Part shown: positions 4,000 through 19,047 of the stretch, in pieces
Position numbering within the stretch: position 1 is the stretch's first letter
How the letters are laid out: every line of letters begins with the position of its first letter
Virus record (IMG/VR): IMGVR_UViG_3300005805_000440
Location: 1-25,469 of that record
Strand: one strand, 5' to 3'
Length of the DNA: 25,469 nt
Origin: a virus
Lineage: Duplodnaviria; Caudoviricetes
Made by a program: the position numbers and the translations under genes
Notes under the pieces: model-generated
What the model was told of the DNA's origin: nothing
Seen by the model: the letters and a program-made list of their open reading frames with translations, nothing else
Databases searched by the model: none

Positions 4000-4710
4000 A
4001 TGGCTACAGAAATATATAAAACAGAAACAATTCAACTTGTTGACGGTACTGAAATAGAAATTATCCCATTAAAGATAAAGTACCTTAGAGAGTTTATGAA
4101 TGCTTTTGATGCTATTCGTGCCACCAGAACTGATCAAGAAGCAATACTAGTTTTATCTGAATGTACAAGAATATGTATGAAGCAGTATTATCCAGAAATA
4201 TCAAAAAGCATAGCGGATGTTGAAGATCACGTAGATTTACCAACAATATATAAAATATTAAATATCGCTGCCTCAATTAAAATTGATAAAAAATCTGAAC
4301 AGCCAGTAAAAGAACAGGCTACAGAAAGTGGCTCATCATGGGATTCTCTTGATTTGGCTAAACTAGAAACTGAGGCATTTTTGCTCGGTATTTGGAAAGA
4401 TTATCAAGAATTAGAACAATCTCTATCTATGGCAGAACTAATTGCAACAATATCAAGTAAAAGAGAACTGGATTATGAGGAAAAGAAATTTTTAGCAGCA
4501 ATACAGGGTGTAGATTTAGATAAAAATAGTGGTAGCGGAAGAGGTCAACAAGAGTGGGAAGACCTTAAGGCAAGAGTATTCAGTGGTGGCAAAGCAAGAG
4601 ATGGAAATGATATTCTTGCTCTTCAAGGTCCCGCTGCTGAAAAAGCAGGGTTTGGTATTGGCATGGGCTTAGATTATGAAGACATGCGTGACCCTTCAAT
4701 AATGAAGTAA
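4000..4710 (+). CDS. Tail assembly chaperone, long (GT-like) form encoded in a single frame
   Basis: Lies between tail tube and TMP. The N-terminal ~96 aa are paralogous to 4769..5098, followed by a linker and a second domain starting WDSLDLAKLE. Confidence 0.75.
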   Translation: MATEIYKTETIQLVDGTEIEIIPLKIKYLREFMNAFDAIRATRTDQEAILVLSECTRICMKQYYPEISKSIADVEDHVDLPTIYKILNIAASIKIDKKSEQPVKEQATESGSSWDSLDLAKLETEAFLLGIWKDYQELEQSLSMAELIATISSKRELDYEEKKFLAAIQGVDLDKNSGSGRGQQEWEDLKARVFSGGKARDGNDILALQGPAAEKAGFGIGMGLDYEDMRDPSIMK

Positions 4711-4733
4711 TAATATTGAAAATAGCCGTTTTG

Positions 4734-4742
4734 TGCTATAAT
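4734..4742 (+). promoter_or_regulatory. Extended -10 promoter
   Basis: Intergenic consensus TGCTATAAT. AGGAGG RBS at 4759-4764. Confidence 0.7.
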
Positions 4743-4768
4743 TACATTTAACCTATATAGGAGGATAA

Positions 4769-5098
4769 ATGGCAACAACAACGTACGAGAGCCAAGAACT
4801 TACTCTTATGGATGGAACAAAAATCACGGTGAGACCATTAAAAATTTCACTACTTCGTCCATTTATGAGCAAGTTTGAAAAGGTAGCAGAGGTGGCAGAC
4901 AATAATGAGAAGTCAATGACTCTACTTATTGAATGTGTAGAAATTGCTATGAAGCAGTTCAAGCCAGAATTGGCTAGTGTCGAAAAACTTGAAGAGGTCT
5001 TAGACCTTCCAACAGTTTATAAGATCATTGAGGCTGCTTCGGGGGTTAAACTCCAAGATGCTAATGCTCTGTTGAATACAGTGCTTGCAAACAACTAA
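4769..5098 (+). CDS. Tail assembly chaperone, short (G-like) form
   Basis: 109 aa, directly before the TMP. Shares DGT, PLKI, LRxFM, ECxxIxMKQ and DLPTxYKI with the preceding gene. Confidence 0.8.
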   Translation: MATTTYESQELTLMDGTKITVRPLKISLLRPFMSKFEKVAEVADNNEKSMTLLIECVEIAMKQFKPELASVEKLEEVLDLPTVYKIIEAASGVKLQDANALLNTVLANN

Positions 5099-5116: not shown

Positions 5117-8100
5117 GTGGCTGACGTAAATGCTAATATTGGCATAAATATAGATACGTCTCAGTCTTTAGCAGAGATCAAAAATCTCCAGCGACAATTA
5201 GCACAACTATATACAAGCATAAATAAAGGTAGTGCTGCAGCCGCAGCAGCCCAAAAGGGTCTTGCTACCAACTTAATGAACACCATCAATGCTGGTGGTA
5301 AGTTCTACGCCCAGATGGGCACAATCCGAACAAGTACGGAATCATTTACTCACGCACTGGAGAAAAATAAACTCTCTATGCGTGAGTATTTCCGTTTTGC
5401 TGGCGGATCTACAAGAACATTTGGAAAATTATTTAAATCAGAATTTGACACGATTGGCAAGGTAGCCGAAGAACGTGTCAAGAGAATGCAGACTCAATAT
5501 ATTAAGTTGGGTCGTGATGCATCTGGAGCCATGAAGGCAATTTCCATAACTCCTACAACTTTAAATATGAAAGAGTATGGAAATCAAGTAGCAGTAGCAG
5601 CACAAAAACAAGCACTTTTAAATCAATTATTAAAGCAGGGTTCAACCAATCTATTAAACTTTGGTAAGAATACTCAGTGGGCTGGCCGTCAGTTGATGGT
5701 TGGTTTTACAATACCACTTGCATATTTTGGTACAGCAGCAGCCAAAACATTTATGGATCTTGAGGCTCAAGCCCTTAAGTTCCGTCGTGTTTATGGTGAT
5801 ATGTTTACTACTACCGCTGAAACAGAAAAAGCACTTGGAGAAATCCGTGCATTAGCAGAAGAATTTACTAGATATGGTGTAGCAGTTACAAAAACTATGG
5901 AAATGGCAGCCGCTGCTGCTGCTATGGGTAAGACTGGTGCAGAATTAACAGCACAGGTAGCAAATGCTACACGATTAGCGGTTCTTGGTAACGTAGAGCA
6001 AGAACAAGCGCTAGAAACCACAATATCTTTAACAAATGCTTTTGGAATTGCAGCGGAAGATCTAGCAAACAAAATTAACTTCCTAAACTCTGTAGAAAAC
6101 CAAACAGTAACCGCTATTGAAGATTTAACAATTGCTATTCCAAAGGCTGGACCAGTTGTACAGCAATTGGGTGGTAGCGTAGAAGATTTGGCATTCTTCT
6201 TAACTGCTATGCGTGAAGGTGGCATTAATGCATCAGAAGGCGCTAACGCATTAAAGTCTGGTCTTGCATCATTAATTAACCCAACTAAAAAAGCATCTCA
6301 AATGCTTGCCGATATGGGAATTAATATTAAGGATATTGTTGAAAGAAATCAAGGAGATCTAAAGAGAACCGTAATTGATTTTGCTCTAGCACTTGATACT
6401 CTTGCACCACTAGAAAGATCAAGAGCAATTGAACAATTGTTTGGTAAATTCCAGTTTGCTCGTTTATCAACATTATTCCAAAATGTTACAAAAGATGGAA
6501 CTCAAGCAGCAAAGGTTTTGCAATTAGCAACAGCGTCTGTTGAAGAACTTGCTATTTTATCAGAGCGAGAATTACAGGCAGTAGAAGATGCTATTGGTAC
6601 AAATTTTAGAGAAGCAGTTGAAAAACTTAAAGTATCTATTGCTCCAATTGGTAAAGAATTCTTAAAAGCAATTACTCCAGTTGTAGAATTTTTAGGAAAA
6701 TTGTTTGATAAATTTAATAATCTTGGAGACGGTACAAAGAAGTTTATAGTAATTCTAACAAGCCTAGTAGGTCTAATAGGTCCAACATTATTGATGACAT
6801 TTGGTTTGGTAGCAAACGGTGCTGCCAACATTATCAAGATGTTTATATTAATGAGACAAGGATTTTTAAAGTTAGCAGGTAACAGCACAAACTTAGCAGC
6901 ACAAACACAATATATGACAACAGAGCAACAAGAGGCTGCTATTGTTGCTGCTTCATTAAATCAGGCTCATTCACGCTTAACACAGCAGTTTGTTTTAGAA
7001 GCCTCTGCTGTAAATCAATTAAGAAATGCATATGTTGGTGCTACAACCGCAGCATTAAGGTTTGCTGCTACAAATCCTGGAATGATGATTCCAGGCTTCA
7101 AGGCTCCAGTAAAAGGATTTAGCAAGGGAACTAATAAGGTTCCAGGGTATGCAAAAGGAACTGACTCAGTACCAGCAATGCTCACACCAGGTGAAGCAGT
7201 TATTCCAGAGCCTATTGCACAAGACGACAGATTTAAACCACTAATTGCTGCTCTTGTAAGTGGAGAGATTGCAAAATATGAAGAGGGTACTGTAAATGTT
7301 GGTGGTAAGACATATACCACAAAGAGCCAGATGGCTGCTCGTAATTTGGAAAAGAAGATAGCACAATTAATTGCTGCTGGTATTTCAGAAGATAAAATTA
7401 TTCGTGCTCTAGATAAAAATATAGAGCGTGGCAGACCAATGACTGGTTCTGCTTTAGAAAAAAGACTATCTATTGGTCGTGGATCAAGTGCTGGAACAAG
7501 TGCTCCATCTGCTATTAAGAGGCTTGCTAAAGAATCACAGTCTGGTTTCAGAACTGAAGTAAGAGCAATAAAGAAGGTTTTGAAACAAAAAGGTATTACT
7601 TTAACCCCTGCACAAGAAAAAAATCTTTTTGCAGTACAAGCATCACATATTGAAGAAGTTAGAAACGCTGGCATAAAGCAATGGAATGCATCAAATCTAG
7701 TAGCAGATCTTGGATATGTTAACAATTATTTAAATACTGTAAAAGGAAATCTTGGTAAAAATCTACTTGCAATGTCTGATGATCAACTAAAAACTCTTGG
7801 CATTGATAGAGATGAACTCAGAGCATTGCAGTCTGGTCGTCATCCAACTACAGCAAGGGCTGCAGAAACTTTAAGGGCAGTTGCAAGGTATGATGCATCT
7901 ATTAATCCAAGATCTTATCAAGCACAAGCAGTGCTAGCAGGACTTGAATATAGATCAAAGAGTAAGTTTTATGCAAAGCCATTACAAACTTTAGCAGATG
8001 TAAAGAAAACTCCTGCAACCCTTGCAGTTGGTAAGGGTGAAACTGTAAGAACTGCAGACGGCAGACTTGTTAAGGTAACTGGACAAACTGGTATTGCAAA

Positions 8101-11100
8101 ACCTTCAGGCATGAGAGTTGTTGGTGGTGGAGCATCTGATAGGCGTGTTATTTCTGGTGCAAATGTAGCAAGTGTTATTAGTAGAGGATTTAAAGGACCA
8201 CGTTTGGTTGGTGCTGGAGCGCAAGACGGTATTGATTTAACTCGTGGTGTAACTTATGGACAAACAGCAGGTGGATTGCTTGTACCTCAAAGTGCATTAG
8301 AAGATGCATTAAATAAAAATACACAATCACAAAATTTAGGAACAGACACTCAGGATAAAAATACAGAAACACAAGAAAAAACTGCAAAACAATTAAAACA
8401 AGAACAACGTCAAGCAAGAATGCAAAGAATGTCGTCAATTGGTGGTCCAGTTGCGATGGCAGCAGGAACAGCAGGTATGGTTGCTGCTATGAGTGGTGCT
8501 CCACAAACAATGACTAATTTCTTATTTGGTATATCTGCAGTTGCTGGACTTTTGCCACTCCTTGCTAATCCACTTGGAATGGCAGTTGCTGGTATTGCTG
8601 CACTTGGAATAGCAGTTTATAAATTTAATGCAGATATTAAAAAAGCAAGAGAAGAGGGTGTTGCTCTTGCTAAGTCTATGACTATGACAAATGAAAAACT
8701 TATAGAACTTTCTAAGATTACTGGAAGTGTTAGTGCTACAGAACTTGCAAAAAGACAAAGACAAACTGTTTTAAGTGGTGCATCTGGTGTACAAAGAAAA
8801 ACAGGACAAACAATTCTTGAAAGTGGATTTGGTCAAGGTTTAGTAAAAGACATAGAAAAACAACAAAAAACTGGTGCTTCTAATGCACAAGTTGCTAAAA
8901 GTGTTGGACTTGGATTATCTACTGCAATTATGCAAGGTGTATTAACAGTAGAGCAAGCAAGAAGTTTGGCTGCTGCTCTTGGAGAAAAACTTGGAAATTA
9001 TGATATACCAGCAAGAATTAGTGGAACAATAGTTAGTTTGTTGGGACCAAATGGTGAAAGATTAGAAAGCGAGCCACTTCAGGTTGCTCTTGCAATCAAA
9101 AAAGAATCTATGACTCAACAAGCAGAAATGTTTCAAAATGCAATGTCAAGGAGACAATCTACTATAACAGCACAAAATGCTGCTGGAATGACTGCTGGAG
9201 TCGGACTAATGGCAGCAGCGGGTGGTGCTGCAGCAACTGGTGTTGGAATTCCTGTAGCCGCTGGATTACTAGTTGCTGGTGCTGCAGCAACTGTTCTTTC
9301 ATTAAAAAATCAAAATGATATTAAAGCAAAAAATCTTACATTAGATACAGCAGCAGTTCAACTTGGACTTGAAACAGTAGCACAAGGTCAAGGACTTATA
9401 GATTCATTAAATAAACAATATGATGCAAAAATTAAACAGGCAAGAACTGCAGAAGAAATAAAAAGACTTGAAGCAGAGCGTAAAACTGCAATTGATGCAG
9501 TAAATAAAGAAAATGCTAAAACATTAGATATTTTAATTAAACAAAAAGATCAGTTTACCCCTGGTGCATTTGATGCTGCTATAAAGGCTGCTGCAGATAC
9601 AATGTACAAAGAAGGGCCTATGGCTGTGTTTAAAGATGAAGCAATTAAGGCTTTGTCAGAACTAGAAAATAGCAGTTTTAAAACCACCCTTCAACTAGGA
9701 ATAGCATCTGGAGACATGGATCCTAATCAAATTATTGCTTTAATAAATATGGTAGAAAAGAATCCTGATATTAAAACTAATTTTGATTTTATTGTAAGAT
9801 CTCAGGGCTTGGCAGAAGCAAATGTTTTAGTTGGTTTATTAGAAAAAGCAGGGGCAAACGAACAAACATATAAAATTATTATGGATTTTATTAAGAAAAA
9901 TCCAACAGAGTTTAAAGATGTACAAGATGGATTGTCTACAATTTCAAACATTTTGCCAAAGTATGGTATAACAGTAGATATTAATACTGTTGGCTTAGAC
10001 CAGTTAAAAATGGTTCAAAGAATAACAGATACTTTAAGTACACAAAAAGAGCCTTTAACTCAACAAGTAATTGCAGATTTAAGAGATGCTGCTGGAAACC
10101 CAGTTGATAAAGAAATTTATCAAGATATTTTAGACAACTGGACTACTCTTGTTGGATCTCAAGATACGATTACAAAACAAATGGTTATTGATTTTACTGC
10201 AACATACTCAGATCCAAACGTTAAACAATTCTTTGGTACATCTACTGGTATCCCACAAACTATCAGAGGACAAAAGGTAAATATTGATGCTGGACAAGCA
10301 AGTGCATATTTAGTTGGCAGTGGTAAAGGAAGTCAAGGTGGTGGTGTTAAACCTCCACAAACTCCACCTTCAGGTGGAACTGGTGACAGAGACACTACAC
10401 TTGATAATTTATTAACAAGATTAAAATTTATTCGCAAGGCATCAATTAATGCTGAAGGTGGAATTAAAACATTAATGAATATAACAAAAGGTGCTGGTTT
10501 AACTAAATTTGTTGGTGTAACTCAACAATTAATGGCTGGACCAAAAGGCGGATTTAACAGAGAGTTTATAACATTTTTAGAGAGTATGGATAATAAAACT
10601 CGTAAAACTTATATGACTGTAAAAGATGGTCAAGTTGTTTTAACAAAACAGGGCAAGGCACTTAAAGAAGCATTTAATGAAAAAGTCATTGGTGAATATC
10701 AAGTGGCGCAGGCTCAAGCAAAACAAGATACTCTAGCACAAGGTGCAGCACTGGCTAAACTAAAGGCCGCTGGAGTTGATTCTGCTACCGCATTAGAAAT
10801 GGTTTCTGATGCTAATTTAGCCGTAGCAATTAACTCTAAAGATATTAGTAGTGAAGAACTACAACAAATGGCAGCAGATGCTAAGGCTGCTAAAGATGAG
10901 ATGGAAAAATTAAATCTTGAGGTATTAGGTTTGGCAGAAAGTTTAAAGAAGGATGTTGGAGATGCAGTAAAAACTAATCAGGCTCTTTTAAAAGCAAGAG
11001 AGGCTGGCATTGTAGATCCAGAAATGCTAGAGTATATTTCAAAAAATGCTTCACTAGTTAATAAGATTTTACAAGAAGGAACTGGATCTGAAACAGCGCA

Positions 11101-13057
11101 AAGCATTATGCAATCTGTAAATGCTATGAAGGCTCTTGGTGAGCAAACCGAAGCACTTGTTAATCCAGCCCAGGCTGCTTTAAATAAATTCTCTAAATTA
11201 AAAGATGCTGCATTTGAGGCTTTTGATATACAACAACGTCAAGCACAATCTAAATTTAATGCTGGAATGAATAGGACTGTAAACAGTTTTGTTTCTTTAA
11301 ATAAGGTTGGAAGTCAGTTCCAAGGAATGTCCCTTAAGAGTGCAATTAAGTCTGCAGAAGGAACTATTACTGGCCTAAACGATCAAATTAGAGTAATACA
11401 AGATCGTCAAATTAAACCTATAGAAATACAAATTGAAGCAAAACAGCGTTCAATAGATGACATAATGAAGTCTCTTGAGACTCAGGCTGCTGGTATGACT
11501 AAAGGCTTTAAACTTCCAGCAGCAGCATATAAAGATATTGCAGAAGGACTACAAGATCAAATTCAAGGTTTAGAATTAGATATTGAATTTAACTTTAAGA
11601 GACCAATTGATGAATTACAAGAAGAGTCATCAGACTTATCAAATGAATTAACTTTGATGGATAGAGTCATAGATGGTATTAATAAAAAATATGATGCTCA
11701 GGCAGATGCTCTTGAAAAAGTTTCTGAAGTTAATCAAGAAATATTAGATCAACAAAAGAGTCAACTTGATATTGCTAGTGCAATTACACAGGGTGATATT
11801 GCTGCCGCTGCTCGTGCAGCACAAGACGCTAGAGCACAGGCTGCAGCCACAGCAGCAAAGAGGGCTGGTGGAGTACTTGATGCAGCAAGACAGGCTGAAG
11901 TTGGTGCTGTCCGATCTGCAGGCGGTATGACAAGAGAACAAATTGAACAACGTCAGTTCCAGATTAGTCAACAAATATTCCAGTTGGAAGAGCAGTCAGA
12001 GGTTAAGCAACGTGCAATTCTTGCTCTTAAAGATCAAATTGATGCTGGTGAAAGAGCAAGAGAAGCATTTATTAGAGAAACCGTTCTTCCTCTTGAAAGA
12101 GAAATTGAAGGTCTTCAGGCAAGCAAGCAAGTTCACATTGATAATATAGCAAAACTTGAAGCCGATATCCTTAGAATTCAGTATGAGGTTTTAGGACCAC
12201 TTCAGGCAGAAGCAGATATTCTTCAACAAGAATATGATAATGCAATTGATCTTATTGAACAAGAAAAACAACATTGGCTAGATCAAGAAACTGCTCTTAT
12301 TATTGCAACAAAAGAAACAACAAAATTTGCTGGAGAAGCAGATAAAGTTAAAACTGCATTTGAAAATGCTAAAAAAGTTTATGATGATATTAAAAATAAA
12401 ACAGTAACAATAACAGTTGTTTATAACTATGTTGGCACACCACCTAGCGGAAGCACTGGTAATACAGGAAATACAAAAACAGTGCCACAAGGCGTTTTTG
12501 ATAAATTTAAAATGTATGGTGGAAAGATTAATGGCTATATGGGTGGCGGTAGAGTAAAACCTATCTATCGTCCAATGGGTGGATTAATACCTTATATGAA
12601 TAATGGTGGCTTTAAGCCTATGGGTTCTGATACCGTGCCAGCAATGCTAACTCCAGGCGAATATGTAGTAAACAAGTCTTCTACTAAAGCATTTTTACCA
12701 TTGCTAACTGCTATGAATGAAAGTAAGTTCCCATCCTCTCTAACTAAGAGATTATTTAATAGTGCTGGCGATGTAAGAATTACAAGATCATTTAATACAC
12801 CAAACTACAATCTTTCTGCTTTATCAAACACTCAGTTCTTACAGCCATCATACGATGTAAATAGCAACACTTTGATGAATAATCCAATTAGCAATAATAT
12901 TTCTTCATACAGCGACAACTCTAGCGCAGTGTATAATTATAATGTTGGAATAAGTGTTGGTGGAACAGATGCTTCACCTGATACAATTGCCAAGGCAGTA
13001 ATGAGAGAAATTAAGTATATTGACTCTCAAAGAATTAGAAGTCAAAGGACAGCATAG
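5117..13057 (+). CDS. Tape measure protein (2646 aa) with internal insert
   Basis: Longest ORF, Ala/Gln/Lys-rich and helical. TP901-like core (GINASEGANALKSGLASL), hydrophobic blocks, coiled coils, and C-terminal GSDTVPAMLTPGEYVV. GTG start with GAGGTG RBS. Confidence 0.93.
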   Translation: MADVNANIGINIDTSQSLAEIKNLQRQLAQLYTSINKGSAAAAAAQKGLATNLMNTINAGGKFYAQMGTIRTSTESFTHALEKNKLSMREYFRFAGGSTRTFGKLFKSEFDTIGKVAEERVKRMQTQYIKLGRDASGAMKAISITPTTLNMKEYGNQVAVAAQKQALLNQLLKQGSTNLLNFGKNTQWAGRQLMVGFTIPLAYFGTAAAKTFMDLEAQALKFRRVYGDMFTTTAETEKALGEIRALAEEFTRYGVAVTKTMEMAAAAAAMGKTGAELTAQVANATRLAVLGNVEQEQALETTISLTNAFGIAAEDLANKINFLNSVENQTVTAIEDLTIAIPKAGPVVQQLGGSVEDLAFFLTAMREGGINASEGANALKSGLASLINPTKKASQMLADMGINIKDIVERNQGDLKRTVIDFALALDTLAPLERSRAIEQLFGKFQFARLSTLFQNVTKDGTQAAKVLQLATASVEELAILSERELQAVEDAIGTNFREAVEKLKVSIAPIGKEFLKAITPVVEFLGKLFDKFNNLGDGTKKFIVILTSLVGLIGPTLLMTFGLVANGAANIIKMFILMRQGFLKLAGNSTNLAAQTQYMTTEQQEAAIVAASLNQAHSRLTQQFVLEASAVNQLRNAYVGATTAALRFAATNPGMMIPGFKAPVKGFSKGTNKVPGYAKGTDSVPAMLTPGEAVIPEPIAQDDRFKPLIAALVSGEIAKYEEGTVNVGGKTYTTKSQMAARNLEKKIAQLIAAGISEDKIIRALDKNIERGRPMTGSALEKRLSIGRGSSAGTSAPSAIKRLAKESQSGFRTEVRAIKKVLKQKGITLTPAQEKNLFAVQASHIEEVRNAGIKQWNASNLVADLGYVNNYLNTVKGNLGKNLLAMSDDQLKTLGIDRDELRALQSGRHPTTARAAETLRAVARYDASINPRSYQAQAVLAGLEYRSKSKFYAKPLQTLADVKKTPATLAVGKGETVRTADGRLVKVTGQTGIAKPSGMRVVGGGASDRRVISGANVASVISRGFKGPRLVGAGAQDGIDLTRGVTYGQTAGGLLVPQSALEDALNKNTQSQNLGTDTQDKNTETQEKTAKQLKQEQRQARMQRMSSIGGPVAMAAGTAGMVAAMSGAPQTMTNFLFGISAVAGLLPLLANPLGMAVAGIAALGIAVYKFNADIKKAREEGVALAKSMTMTNEKLIELSKITGSVSATELAKRQRQTVLSGASGVQRKTGQTILESGFGQGLVKDIEKQQKTGASNAQVAKSVGLGLSTAIMQGVLTVEQARSLAAALGEKLGNYDIPARISGTIVSLLGPNGERLESEPLQVALAIKKESMTQQAEMFQNAMSRRQSTITAQNAAGMTAGVGLMAAAGGAAATGVGIPVAAGLLVAGAAATVLSLKNQNDIKAKNLTLDTAAVQLGLETVAQGQGLIDSLNKQYDAKIKQARTAEEIKRLEAERKTAIDAVNKENAKTLDILIKQKDQFTPGAFDAAIKAAADTMYKEGPMAVFKDEAIKALSELENSSFKTTLQLGIASGDMDPNQIIALINMVEKNPDIKTNFDFIVRSQGLAEANVLVGLLEKAGANEQTYKIIMDFIKKNPTEFKDVQDGLSTISNILPKYGITVDINTVGLDQLKMVQRITDTLSTQKEPLTQQVIADLRDAAGNPVDKEIYQDILDNWTTLVGSQDTITKQMVIDFTATYSDPNVKQFFGTSTGIPQTIRGQKVNIDAGQASAYLVGSGKGSQGGGVKPPQTPPSGGTGDRDTTLDNLLTRLKFIRKASINAEGGIKTLMNITKGAGLTKFVGVTQQLMAGPKGGFNREFITFLESMDNKTRKTYMTVKDGQVVLTKQGKALKEAFNEKVIGEYQVAQAQAKQDTLAQGAALAKLKAAGVDSATALEMVSDANLAVAINSKDISSEELQQMAADAKAAKDEMEKLNLEVLGLAESLKKDVGDAVKTNQALLKAREAGIVDPEMLEYISKNASLVNKILQEGTGSETAQSIMQSVNAMKALGEQTEALVNPAQAALNKFSKLKDAAFEAFDIQQRQAQSKFNAGMNRTVNSFVSLNKVGSQFQGMSLKSAIKSAEGTITGLNDQIRVIQDRQIKPIEIQIEAKQRSIDDIMKSLETQAAGMTKGFKLPAAAYKDIAEGLQDQIQGLELDIEFNFKRPIDELQEESSDLSNELTLMDRVIDGINKKYDAQADALEKVSEVNQEILDQQKSQLDIASAITQGDIAAAARAAQDARAQAAATAAKRAGGVLDAARQAEVGAVRSAGGMTREQIEQRQFQISQQIFQLEEQSEVKQRAILALKDQIDAGERAREAFIRETVLPLEREIEGLQASKQVHIDNIAKLEADILRIQYEVLGPLQAEADILQQEYDNAIDLIEQEKQHWLDQETALIIATKETTKFAGEADKVKTAFENAKKVYDDIKNKTVTITVVYNYVGTPPSGSTGNTGNTKTVPQGVFDKFKMYGGKINGYMGGGRVKPIYRPMGGLIPYMNNGGFKPMGSDTVPAMLTPGEYVVNKSSTKAFLPLLTAMNESKFPSSLTKRLFNSAGDVRITRSFNTPNYNLSALSNTQFLQPSYDVNSNTLMNNPISNNISSYSDNSSAVYNYNVGISVGGTDASPDTIAKAVMREIKYIDSQRIRSQRTA

Positions 13058-18030: not shown

Positions 18031-19047
18031 ATGGCAGATGATTTTTCAGATTTTACTATTTCTGGCTTAGAAGGTTTAAGCGATCTTAACTTTGGAAATT
18101 TTAATTTTAATTGGGATTGGTCTGGAATAGGAGAATTTTTCTCAGACCCACATAACTGGGATAGAGAAATGGCAGCAGTAAATGCTGGAATAAATGCTAG
18201 CCCAGTACTAGCAATGTCTCCAGAAGATCAAACTGATTATTTTAAAAGATATATTGCTGGCGATCCTGAAATCCTGGCACAAGATGCAGAGGCTGCAAAG
18301 TTAGTAAAAGAAGCGCAAGATAAAGCAAGAGAAGACTATAACAAATTTCATAATATTACAACAAAAGTTACGCCAACACCAGTAGGTTCTCCATACTACG
18401 AGGGCATGTGTGCTGGAAGAAGAAGGATGCAGGCATATAGTGACGGTAGCGTTAAAGACCTTGGTCCAGCACCAGATACAACAAGTTATGGATGTAGGGA
18501 TGATGGCGGAGATTACAGTGGTGGATTTAACACAAGTTTGATAGATCCTCCACCAGCAGTTACGCCAACCCCAATTAAACCGACTGTTCCACCTCCACCT
18601 CCTCCACCTCCACCAAAAACTGCTCCCATAGACACTATTCTTTTTGATGATGAGTCTGTTCCAATAGAAATAATGACAGACCTTATCTTTGAAGATATAG
18701 GTGGACACGAACTTATCAATATTGCTCGTAATGATACTATTAATGGGCAGACCGTTTCATACCAGCCAATAAAAAATCTTACAGCAATTCAGCAACAATA
18801 TAACCCTAATAATATTGTTAGCCTTCAAAATACATCTGATAGATATTTTGCCAATTTTGCAATTAAACTTGAAACAAAACTGCCAGGTGAAGGTGATGGC
18901 GGTGGACCAAACGGATCATATGTTTATATAGATACTGATACTGGAGATTTAATTGTAGAACTTCTTAACTTAGACCCAGATGAACAGATAGAGGTTCAGA
19001 TTAGTCTAAGTGGTACAATATATGAGGCGGAGTTTAATGAATCATGA
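18031..19047 (+). CDS. Minor tail protein with Pro-rich linker
   Basis: Within the tail module. Acidic/aromatic N-terminus, Pro-rich linker, globular acidic C-terminal domain. Confidence 0.5.
   Translation: MADDFSDFTISGLEGLSDLNFGNFNFNWDWSGIGEFFSDPHNWDREMAAVNAGINASPVLAMSPEDQTDYFKRYIAGDPEILAQDAEAAKLVKEAQDKAREDYNKFHNITTKVTPTPVGSPYYEGMCAGRRRMQAYSDGSVKDLGPAPDTTSYGCRDDGGDYSGGFNTSLIDPPPAVTPTPIKPTVPPPPPPPPPKTAPIDTILFDDESVPIEIMTDLIFEDIGGHELINIARNDTINGQTVSYQPIKNLTAIQQQYNPNNIVSLQNTSDRYFANFAIKLETKLPGEGDGGGPNGSYVYIDTDTGDLIVELLNLDPDEQIEVQISLSGTIYEAEFNES
18589..18615 (+). repeat. CCW trinucleotide run encoding 9 consecutive prolines
   Basis: CCACCTCCACCTCCTCCACCTCCACCA, read directly. Confidence 0.9.
19011..19019 (+). 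promoter_or_regulatory. Possible intragenic extended -10 promoter
   Basis: TGGTACAAT about 25 nt upstream of ATG 19044. Confidence 0.4.

Follow-up and report, generated by a model that had tools for sequence, protein, structure and literature searches.

Tape measure proteins (TMPs) are regarded as the rulers and DNA channels of long phage tails, and their known enzyme passengers attack the cell wall. In phage lambda, gpH lies in the tail as six extended chains, leaves before the DNA, and forms a channel through the envelope, and several TMPs carry peptidoglycan hydrolases (PMC12617516, PMC1796659; papers are cited by accession, for portions of their text). Enzymatic motifs 1-3 of mycobacteriophage TMPs (PMC1796659), like T5 pb2, are small enzyme domains that vary between phages and whose known or proposed target is the cell wall. 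Delivery of effectors ahead of transcription has so far been assigned to head proteins (T4 Alt, MuF, and DarA/B). MuF-fused effectors and polyvalent proteins are virion proteins predicted to deliver kinases, ADP-ribosyltransferases (ARTs), nucleotidyltransferases, and nucleases with the DNA, and they vary in a cassette-like manner (PMC5512222, PMC3482391). Here we describe a TMP gene in the 25,469-base virus record IMGVR_UViG_3300005805_000440 (analysed in full and called the window) with a slot for swappable, different enzyme-like contents. The cargo of this TMP is a likely His-Me finger nuclease, probably delivered to the host cytoplasm for early takeover or anti-defence, a reading to which we assign a probability of roughly 0.55 from sequence, a structural model, and analogy with other TMPs.

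The gene (nucleotides (nt) 5117-13057; all features given here lie on the + strand) is an open reading frame of 2646 amino acids (aa) downstream of putative major tail and chaperone-like genes. It contains a PF10145 domain at aa 248-443 (E = 1.9e-25 in a Pfam scan), and its N-terminal part is 28-30% identical to the TMPs of Streptomyces phages of the Stanwilliamsviridae, such as Angela, which are the closest isolated relatives. Similarity to carriers of other cargo (BLAST against TMPs with the type B cargo described below) ends at aa 726 and restarts at aa 969; the folded variable cargo is thus a segment of 243 aa (aa 726-968, nt 7292-8020) between conserved flanks. The first-pass annotation had drawn the insert from aa 697 to aa 1107, which is too wide, but its idea of a swappable slot is borne out by the alignment of homologous TMPs, in which conserved flanks bracket different enzyme-like cargos. 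Its description of the surroundings also holds. Hydrophobic blocks lie on both sides, at about aa 541-566 (nt 6737-6814, a predicted membrane segment from hydropathy windows) and 1131-1170 (in the downstream feature at nt 8438-8626, about aa 1108-1170, delimited by hydropathy and a switch in identity). The sequence VPAMLTPGE occurs both at aa 685, ahead of the insert, and at aa 2507, in a further copy of the boundary motif toward the C-terminus (aa 2505-2517, nt 12629-12667). The upstream copy belongs to a boundary element (aa 668-725, nt 7118-7291) in which three [FY]xxGT repeats surround VPAMLTPGE, and a looser motif occupies the same position in 113 of the 144 slots sampled below. Downstream of the cargo, a basic and glycine-containing segment (aa 969-1060), of low confidence in a single-sequence model, leads into a Q/T/K/N linker that runs to aa 1107 (nt 8021-8437 in all) and is partly common to different cargo types. 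The claimed excess of K/R is real (16.9% against 10.9-11.8%, pI 10.2), but the region does not depart from its Ala-rich surroundings (Ala 13.2% against 12.0-14.3%).

To gather TMP loci, the flank was used as query, which gave an initial 19, followed by the 80 best of 471 candidates from one scan and the 80 best of 542 from another; 185 sequences were anchored on the flank, 144 distinct slots of at least 150 aa were kept, and cargo types were assigned by iterated profiles. The type A cargo seen in the window, or its DRxH sister, occupies 44 of these 144 slots, type B, a second His/Asn family, 70, and type C, a PI3K/HipA-like family of putative kinases, 48. Two cargos stand in tandem in 41 slots, and 23 contain none of the three types. 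Types A and B occur together in P0122, and P0113 and P0129 hold three or more cargos; in these and similar multi-cargo proteins a GG-containing repeat of the boundary element precedes each domain. The flank pattern was found in an estimated 1200-2100 stored stretches per collection, indicating a common TMP family, which belongs to freshwater phages. Since independent contigs span both junctions, with those of run X13 covering window positions 6600-7875 and 8072-9200, we rejected an assembly chimera as the origin of the slot.

The cassette is exchanged by recombination. On a tree of the flanks (143 rows), type A requires 19 changes, of which the starred branches force at least 12, whereas shuffled labels need 31.6 on average, and the type A label is therefore clustered yet far from confined to a single clade. 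One relative, L030, shares a recently exchanged tract with the window (nt 7157-8536, aa ~681-1140), with 85-100% nt identity per 20-codon window inside the tract and 46-88% outside it; the upstream flank of L030 instead matches that of L008, which carries type B. Pairwise identity switches at aa ~680-720 and near aa 1140, locating the crossovers in the VPAMLTPGE element and hydrophobic block 2. Synonymous divergence (dS) between the two cargos is 0.12-0.25 and nonsynonymous divergence (dN) is 0.003 or less, compared with a dS of 1.43 in the N-terminal flank. It is the scatter of cargo types over the flank tree, together with this near-identical cassette inside divergent flanks, that argues for recombinational exchange. 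No anomaly in GC content was found. The cargo is also under strong purifying selection: its core gives a dN of 0.003 and a dS of 0.25 between the window and L030, and eight further pairs give dN of 0.01-0.15 and dS of 0.07-0.75.

A profile search of 1.84 billion representatives returned 66 type A matches (counted as 50%-identity representatives), 64 of which carry TMP flanks, the other two being fragments. The predicted core of the cargo (aa 795-960, nt 7499-7996), delimited by the model, conservation, and dN/dS, contains the 33-residue motif exactly where the first-pass annotation had placed it (aa 841-873, nt 7637-7735), and we take this motif as the putative active site, with H844 (nt 7646-7648), K854, W856, D864 (nt 7706-7708), and N869 (nt 7721-7723). 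Conservation had been proposed for H844, N860, and N869. It holds for H844 (64/64 distant relatives and 44/44 local members) and N869 (66/66 and 42/44) and fails for N860 (39/66). Among the distant relatives, D864 is kept in 62 of 66, W856 in 60, K854 in 49, and the R946 column in 55 of 56; N873 is kept in 38 of 64, and another 18 have E, Q, or D there. The full pattern, H-x12-17-N-x8-[HN]-x3-[HN], which was fitted post hoc, occurs once in the TMP and in 8 of 2000 shuffles of it, and a shorter version in 169 of 2000.

A model of aa 726-968 built from an alignment of 55 sequences has a mean predicted local distance difference test (pLDDT) score of 90.3 and a predicted template modelling score of 0.69. 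Its N-terminal domain is small and helical, and so is its larger core in the main; in the core, two strands (model residues 115-119 and 136-140, the second being aa 861-865) are followed by a long helix (141-159). In His-Me fingers the first β-strand ends in a near-invariant His, and the first turn of the core helix holds an Asn or His (PMC5714182). The modelled cargo has both: H844 ends strand 1, and N869 (model residue 144) lies in the opening turn of the helix that follows strand 2, with N873 at +4. The order of elements would fit a β-hairpin plus helix as in a His-Me finger, with the pairing of the strands inferred. A single-sequence fold of aa 697-1060 was uninformative (mean pLDDT 56, below 50 in the motif region, and an empty Foldseek result).

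A sister cargo with a DR[SAG]H motif (9 loci) is tied to type A by an iterated hidden Markov model and HHalign (probability 80%, E = 1.4e-5), and the merged profile of the two falls, weakly, in register with 39 DRGH-type nuclease cores (HHalign P = 8.7e-4, against 0.05 and 0.08 for controls); a false row, L224, was left out of the comparisons with nucleases. A motif position-specific scoring matrix (PSSM) finds the His/Asn site in 13 of 25 type A representatives and the His in 4/4 representatives of the sister cargo, and scores significantly in none of 49 type B representatives. Like DRGH-type nucleases (Endonuclease_NS PF01223 and Endonuclea_NS_2 PF13930; EndA, NucA, EndoG), the cargo has the His and the helix Asn, with Asn at position -9 and a polar residue at position -5, all in register. 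The sister cargo also has DR[SAG]H, while the window has QASH without the Glu at +8 and an all-helical scaffold in place of a large sheet. The residue assignment first proposed, after the colicin E7/E9 DNases, has to be given up. The H-x15-N-x8-N spacing is shared, but colicins take metal ligands from a helix H-x3-H and have an invariant loop Asn, whereas the window has N869 and N873 in place of the metal-ligand histidines. Because N860 and N873 vary, type A is not colicin-like, and its weak sequence link is to the DRGH-type enzymes.

Overall, we consider it quite probable that type A is a His-Me (ββα-metal) nuclease, as the model and conservation suggest for its core, although no fold or family search confirms a nuclease. 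A number of observations count against this assignment and the use we propose for it. N869 is replaced by Gly in 2 of the 44 local members, the residue before H844 is S or A rather than acidic, and there is no Glu at +8. The HHalign link to the DRGH nucleases has a probability of just 23%, with reference cores trimmed by an ad hoc regular expression. The PSSM fails to pick the His of the protein encoded in the window, and shuffled sequences reach its score in 15 of 1000 cases when the slot is scored and in 49 of 500 when the whole TMP is, the latter not significant. Types A and B have no detectable homology (HHalign probability 0.3%), and Pfam and PHROG scans gave no nuclease match in any slot scanned (92 slots in one scan). 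Four fold searches of the good model (PDB Foldseek, VIA wide, VIA second look, and BFVD) found no His-Me member, the sole strong match being a homologous TMP; these searches used the whole model and not the ~35-residue core alone, and the missing match is therefore not evidence against a nuclease. Lastly, no candidate immunity gene adjoins the TMP gene, and a non-specific DNase beside the incoming genome would need self-protection.

Other searches with the cargo profiles returned little. Searches of PDB sequences with the profiles of types A, B, and C gave nothing below E = 0.1, an Atlas search for type A gave no usable match, and isolated phages gave none. The only stand-alone relative found is a fragment of 114 aa. 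A single match in 301 genomes (E = 0.002) was set aside because it resembles an unrelated lipoprotein, as was an ART reading of type A, for which the Y-x-x-N-Y-L likeness to C2-I (E = 2.8) is too weak.

The other occupants of the slot are diverse. Type B keeps its His in 69 of 70 members and has Asn (61) or His (9) at its second site. Type C keeps a K, an E, a D-x-D-x4-N, and a D, each in 48/48, which are the catalytic residues of PI3/4-kinase/HipA-like enzymes; its Atlas neighbours are LepB_N, HipA_2, and PI3_PI4 at 0.92-0.93, and although it has no Pfam or PDB sequence match, this cargo is likely a kinase. A HIGH-type nucleotidyltransferase (CTP_transf_like) fills slots of L133, L157, and P0075 (Pfam E = 6e-10 to 2e-5). 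The R...S-x-S...E pattern typical of ARTs occurs in the cargos of P0129, P0114, P0085, and P0117, for which Pfam scans gave no support. A further group is formed by the slots (first 270 aa) of L064, L071, L073, L078, L081, L084, L091, L093, L100, L107, L161, L172, L174, L178, L180, L184, and L188. Of the 19 slots in this group, 17 have a late conserved [SAGE]H, and a strand-plus-Asn element lies near the start in most; these could possibly be circularly permuted His-Me fingers. HHalign gave no link among type B, this possibly permuted group, and groups E and F. Two additional, unassigned slot families have an H...G-x-T-x-x-G-x-x-GYNQ pattern (L059, L142, L143, L146, L147, and L156) or an SH...RN pattern (L062, L106, L148, and L154). 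A cargo with AVRM...RPxYG...YGD motifs recurs in P0082, P0091, and P0113 (aa ~720-1100); its one weak PHROG match is phrog_8314, of unknown function, and we presume that it may have an ART fold.

By analogy with other TMPs (PMC12617516), this TMP is probably also a vehicle by which enzymes enter the infected host cell along with the DNA. A folded domain of 243 aa is unlikely to fit the tail lumen in several copies and therefore probably folds only after ejection; until then, in the virion as in the producer cell, the cargo would be unfolded and silent. Being basic, and sharing its slot with ATP-, NTP-, or NAD-using enzymes, it would refold on the cytoplasmic side, perhaps after release at the repeated [FY]xxG[GT] elements. 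In the predicted site, H844 would act as the general base, with N869 binding the metal, D864 serving as a second-shell ligand, and either K854 or R946 supplying the basic residue. The enzyme would then cut host nucleic acid and thereby help early takeover or blunt defence. The basic helical subdomain at the N-terminus of the cargo (aa 726-792, nt 7292-7492) varies among type A cargos and is possibly the targeting part, likely giving a selectivity that spares the phage's own DNA. More tentatively, these TMPs may be polyproteins that form a tail-based polymorphic effector system, whose GG-containing repeat would delimit interchangeable nucleases (including circularly permuted His-Me fingers), kinases, ARTs, and NAD-restoring nucleotidyltransferases and release them into the cytoplasm before the genome arrives. 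Siphophages would in that case gain an injected arsenal against defences and competitors before any gene expression.

A nuclease could also be aimed at rival phages or rival TMP alleles, by interference or homing, cutting co-infecting genomes that carry another cassette and spreading itself. The transfer of a ~460-codon tract between divergent TMPs and the scatter of mutually exclusive types A and B over the flank tree would fit such competition, for which PhiPA3 gp210 is a precedent (PMC11620839), but homing leaves the kinase, nucleotidyltransferase, and ART-like occupants unexplained, A and B do occur together in P0122, and Pfam scans of the TMP and 92 slots matched no HINT/intein family. 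We regard it as unlikely, and it is compatible with a role in takeover or anti-defence. Excision of the cargo, or a function in tail assembly or late in the producer cell, seems improbable to us: an enzyme needed late would not have to be fused to a virion protein, and type A was found only inside TMPs (64 of the 66 matches, the other two being fragments). In Angela, moreover, motif-like copies flank a C-terminal region that we take to resemble cell-wall enzymes. In favour of excision, repeated boundary motifs delimit each cargo, and TMP processing can remove internal segments (PMC1796659).

A similarly small chance goes to type A being a nucleic-acid-binding, decoy, or SAM-like helical domain, or a His/Asp/Asn enzyme of new fold. 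Weak but recurrent SAM-family matches over aa ~854-905 (E = 0.002-0.4) favour it, as do the four fold searches without a His-Me match. The invariant positions, however, are His and Asn and not residues of a hydrophobic core, the two five-residue strands ahead of the helix in the model have no counterpart in the SAM fold, and there is the DRxH sister group.

With delivery of a nuclease to the host cytoplasm as the preferred reading, the slot is a variant of virion-delivered polymorphic effectors that works like the MuF and polyvalent systems, but with a tail TMP as carrier and an internal site between hydrophobic blocks. Polyvalent proteins join at least 2 disparate enzyme domains per chain (PMC5512222), whereas the window's TMP has one cargo, tandem cargos being the arrangement in 41 of the 144 slots. 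Pfam scans for the MuF, zincin, and ArdC hub domains gave no match in this TMP or in 17 related ones. The term "tape measure" is absent from the main text of PMC5512222, and "tape" from the first 300,000 characters of PMC3482391. A full-text literature search, with subscription papers, supplements, and the Aravind architecture files (which may hold TMP fusions) outside its scope, found no description of nuclease or kinase cargo in TMPs. In contrast to the cell-wall enzymes of mycobacteriophages and T5, the cargos here are predicted to act on cytoplasmic nucleic acids, proteins, and nucleotides. A polymorphic slot of this kind would let long-tailed phages deliver effectors before transcription, and it adds several domain families not described before, along with a boundary motif that can be tested.

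TMPs in general may have their cargo marked by the boundary element. Angela's TMP (L189:8781-15098, ON970591) lacks type A, B, and C domains; its motif-like copies lie at aa ~1641-1690 and 2020-2045, and the region between them presumably resembles a transglycosylase and an M23 peptidase. Long extensions follow later copies of the boundary motif in L014 (L014:11251-13404), P0045, and P0125, where there may be a second cargo site near the TMP C-terminus.

As the closest isolated relatives are Streptomyces siphophages, our guess from sequence is an actinobacterial host; matches to metagenome-assembled genomes were rejected as a guide, the 9 loci being spread across unrelated taxa and probably misbinned. 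At least half of the region's words are present in 16 runs from 8 studies, all of lake, freshwater, aquaculture, or wetland origin (one study is possibly the source of the record, and two rows are possibly one data set). RNA runs contain just 0.05-0.11 of the words and give no evidence on expression. Contigs of relatives extend to ~110 kb, and in the window the tail genes are followed by a helicase and a primase. A 338-aa protein of the tail region (window 18031-19047), without a Pfam match, has an N-terminus of low complexity, a stretch containing Cys, and a run of prolines. Ahead of the TMP gene lie two chaperone-like genes (236 and 109 aa; window 4000-5098) whose similar N-termini suggest that a duplication stands where a frameshift pair is usual.

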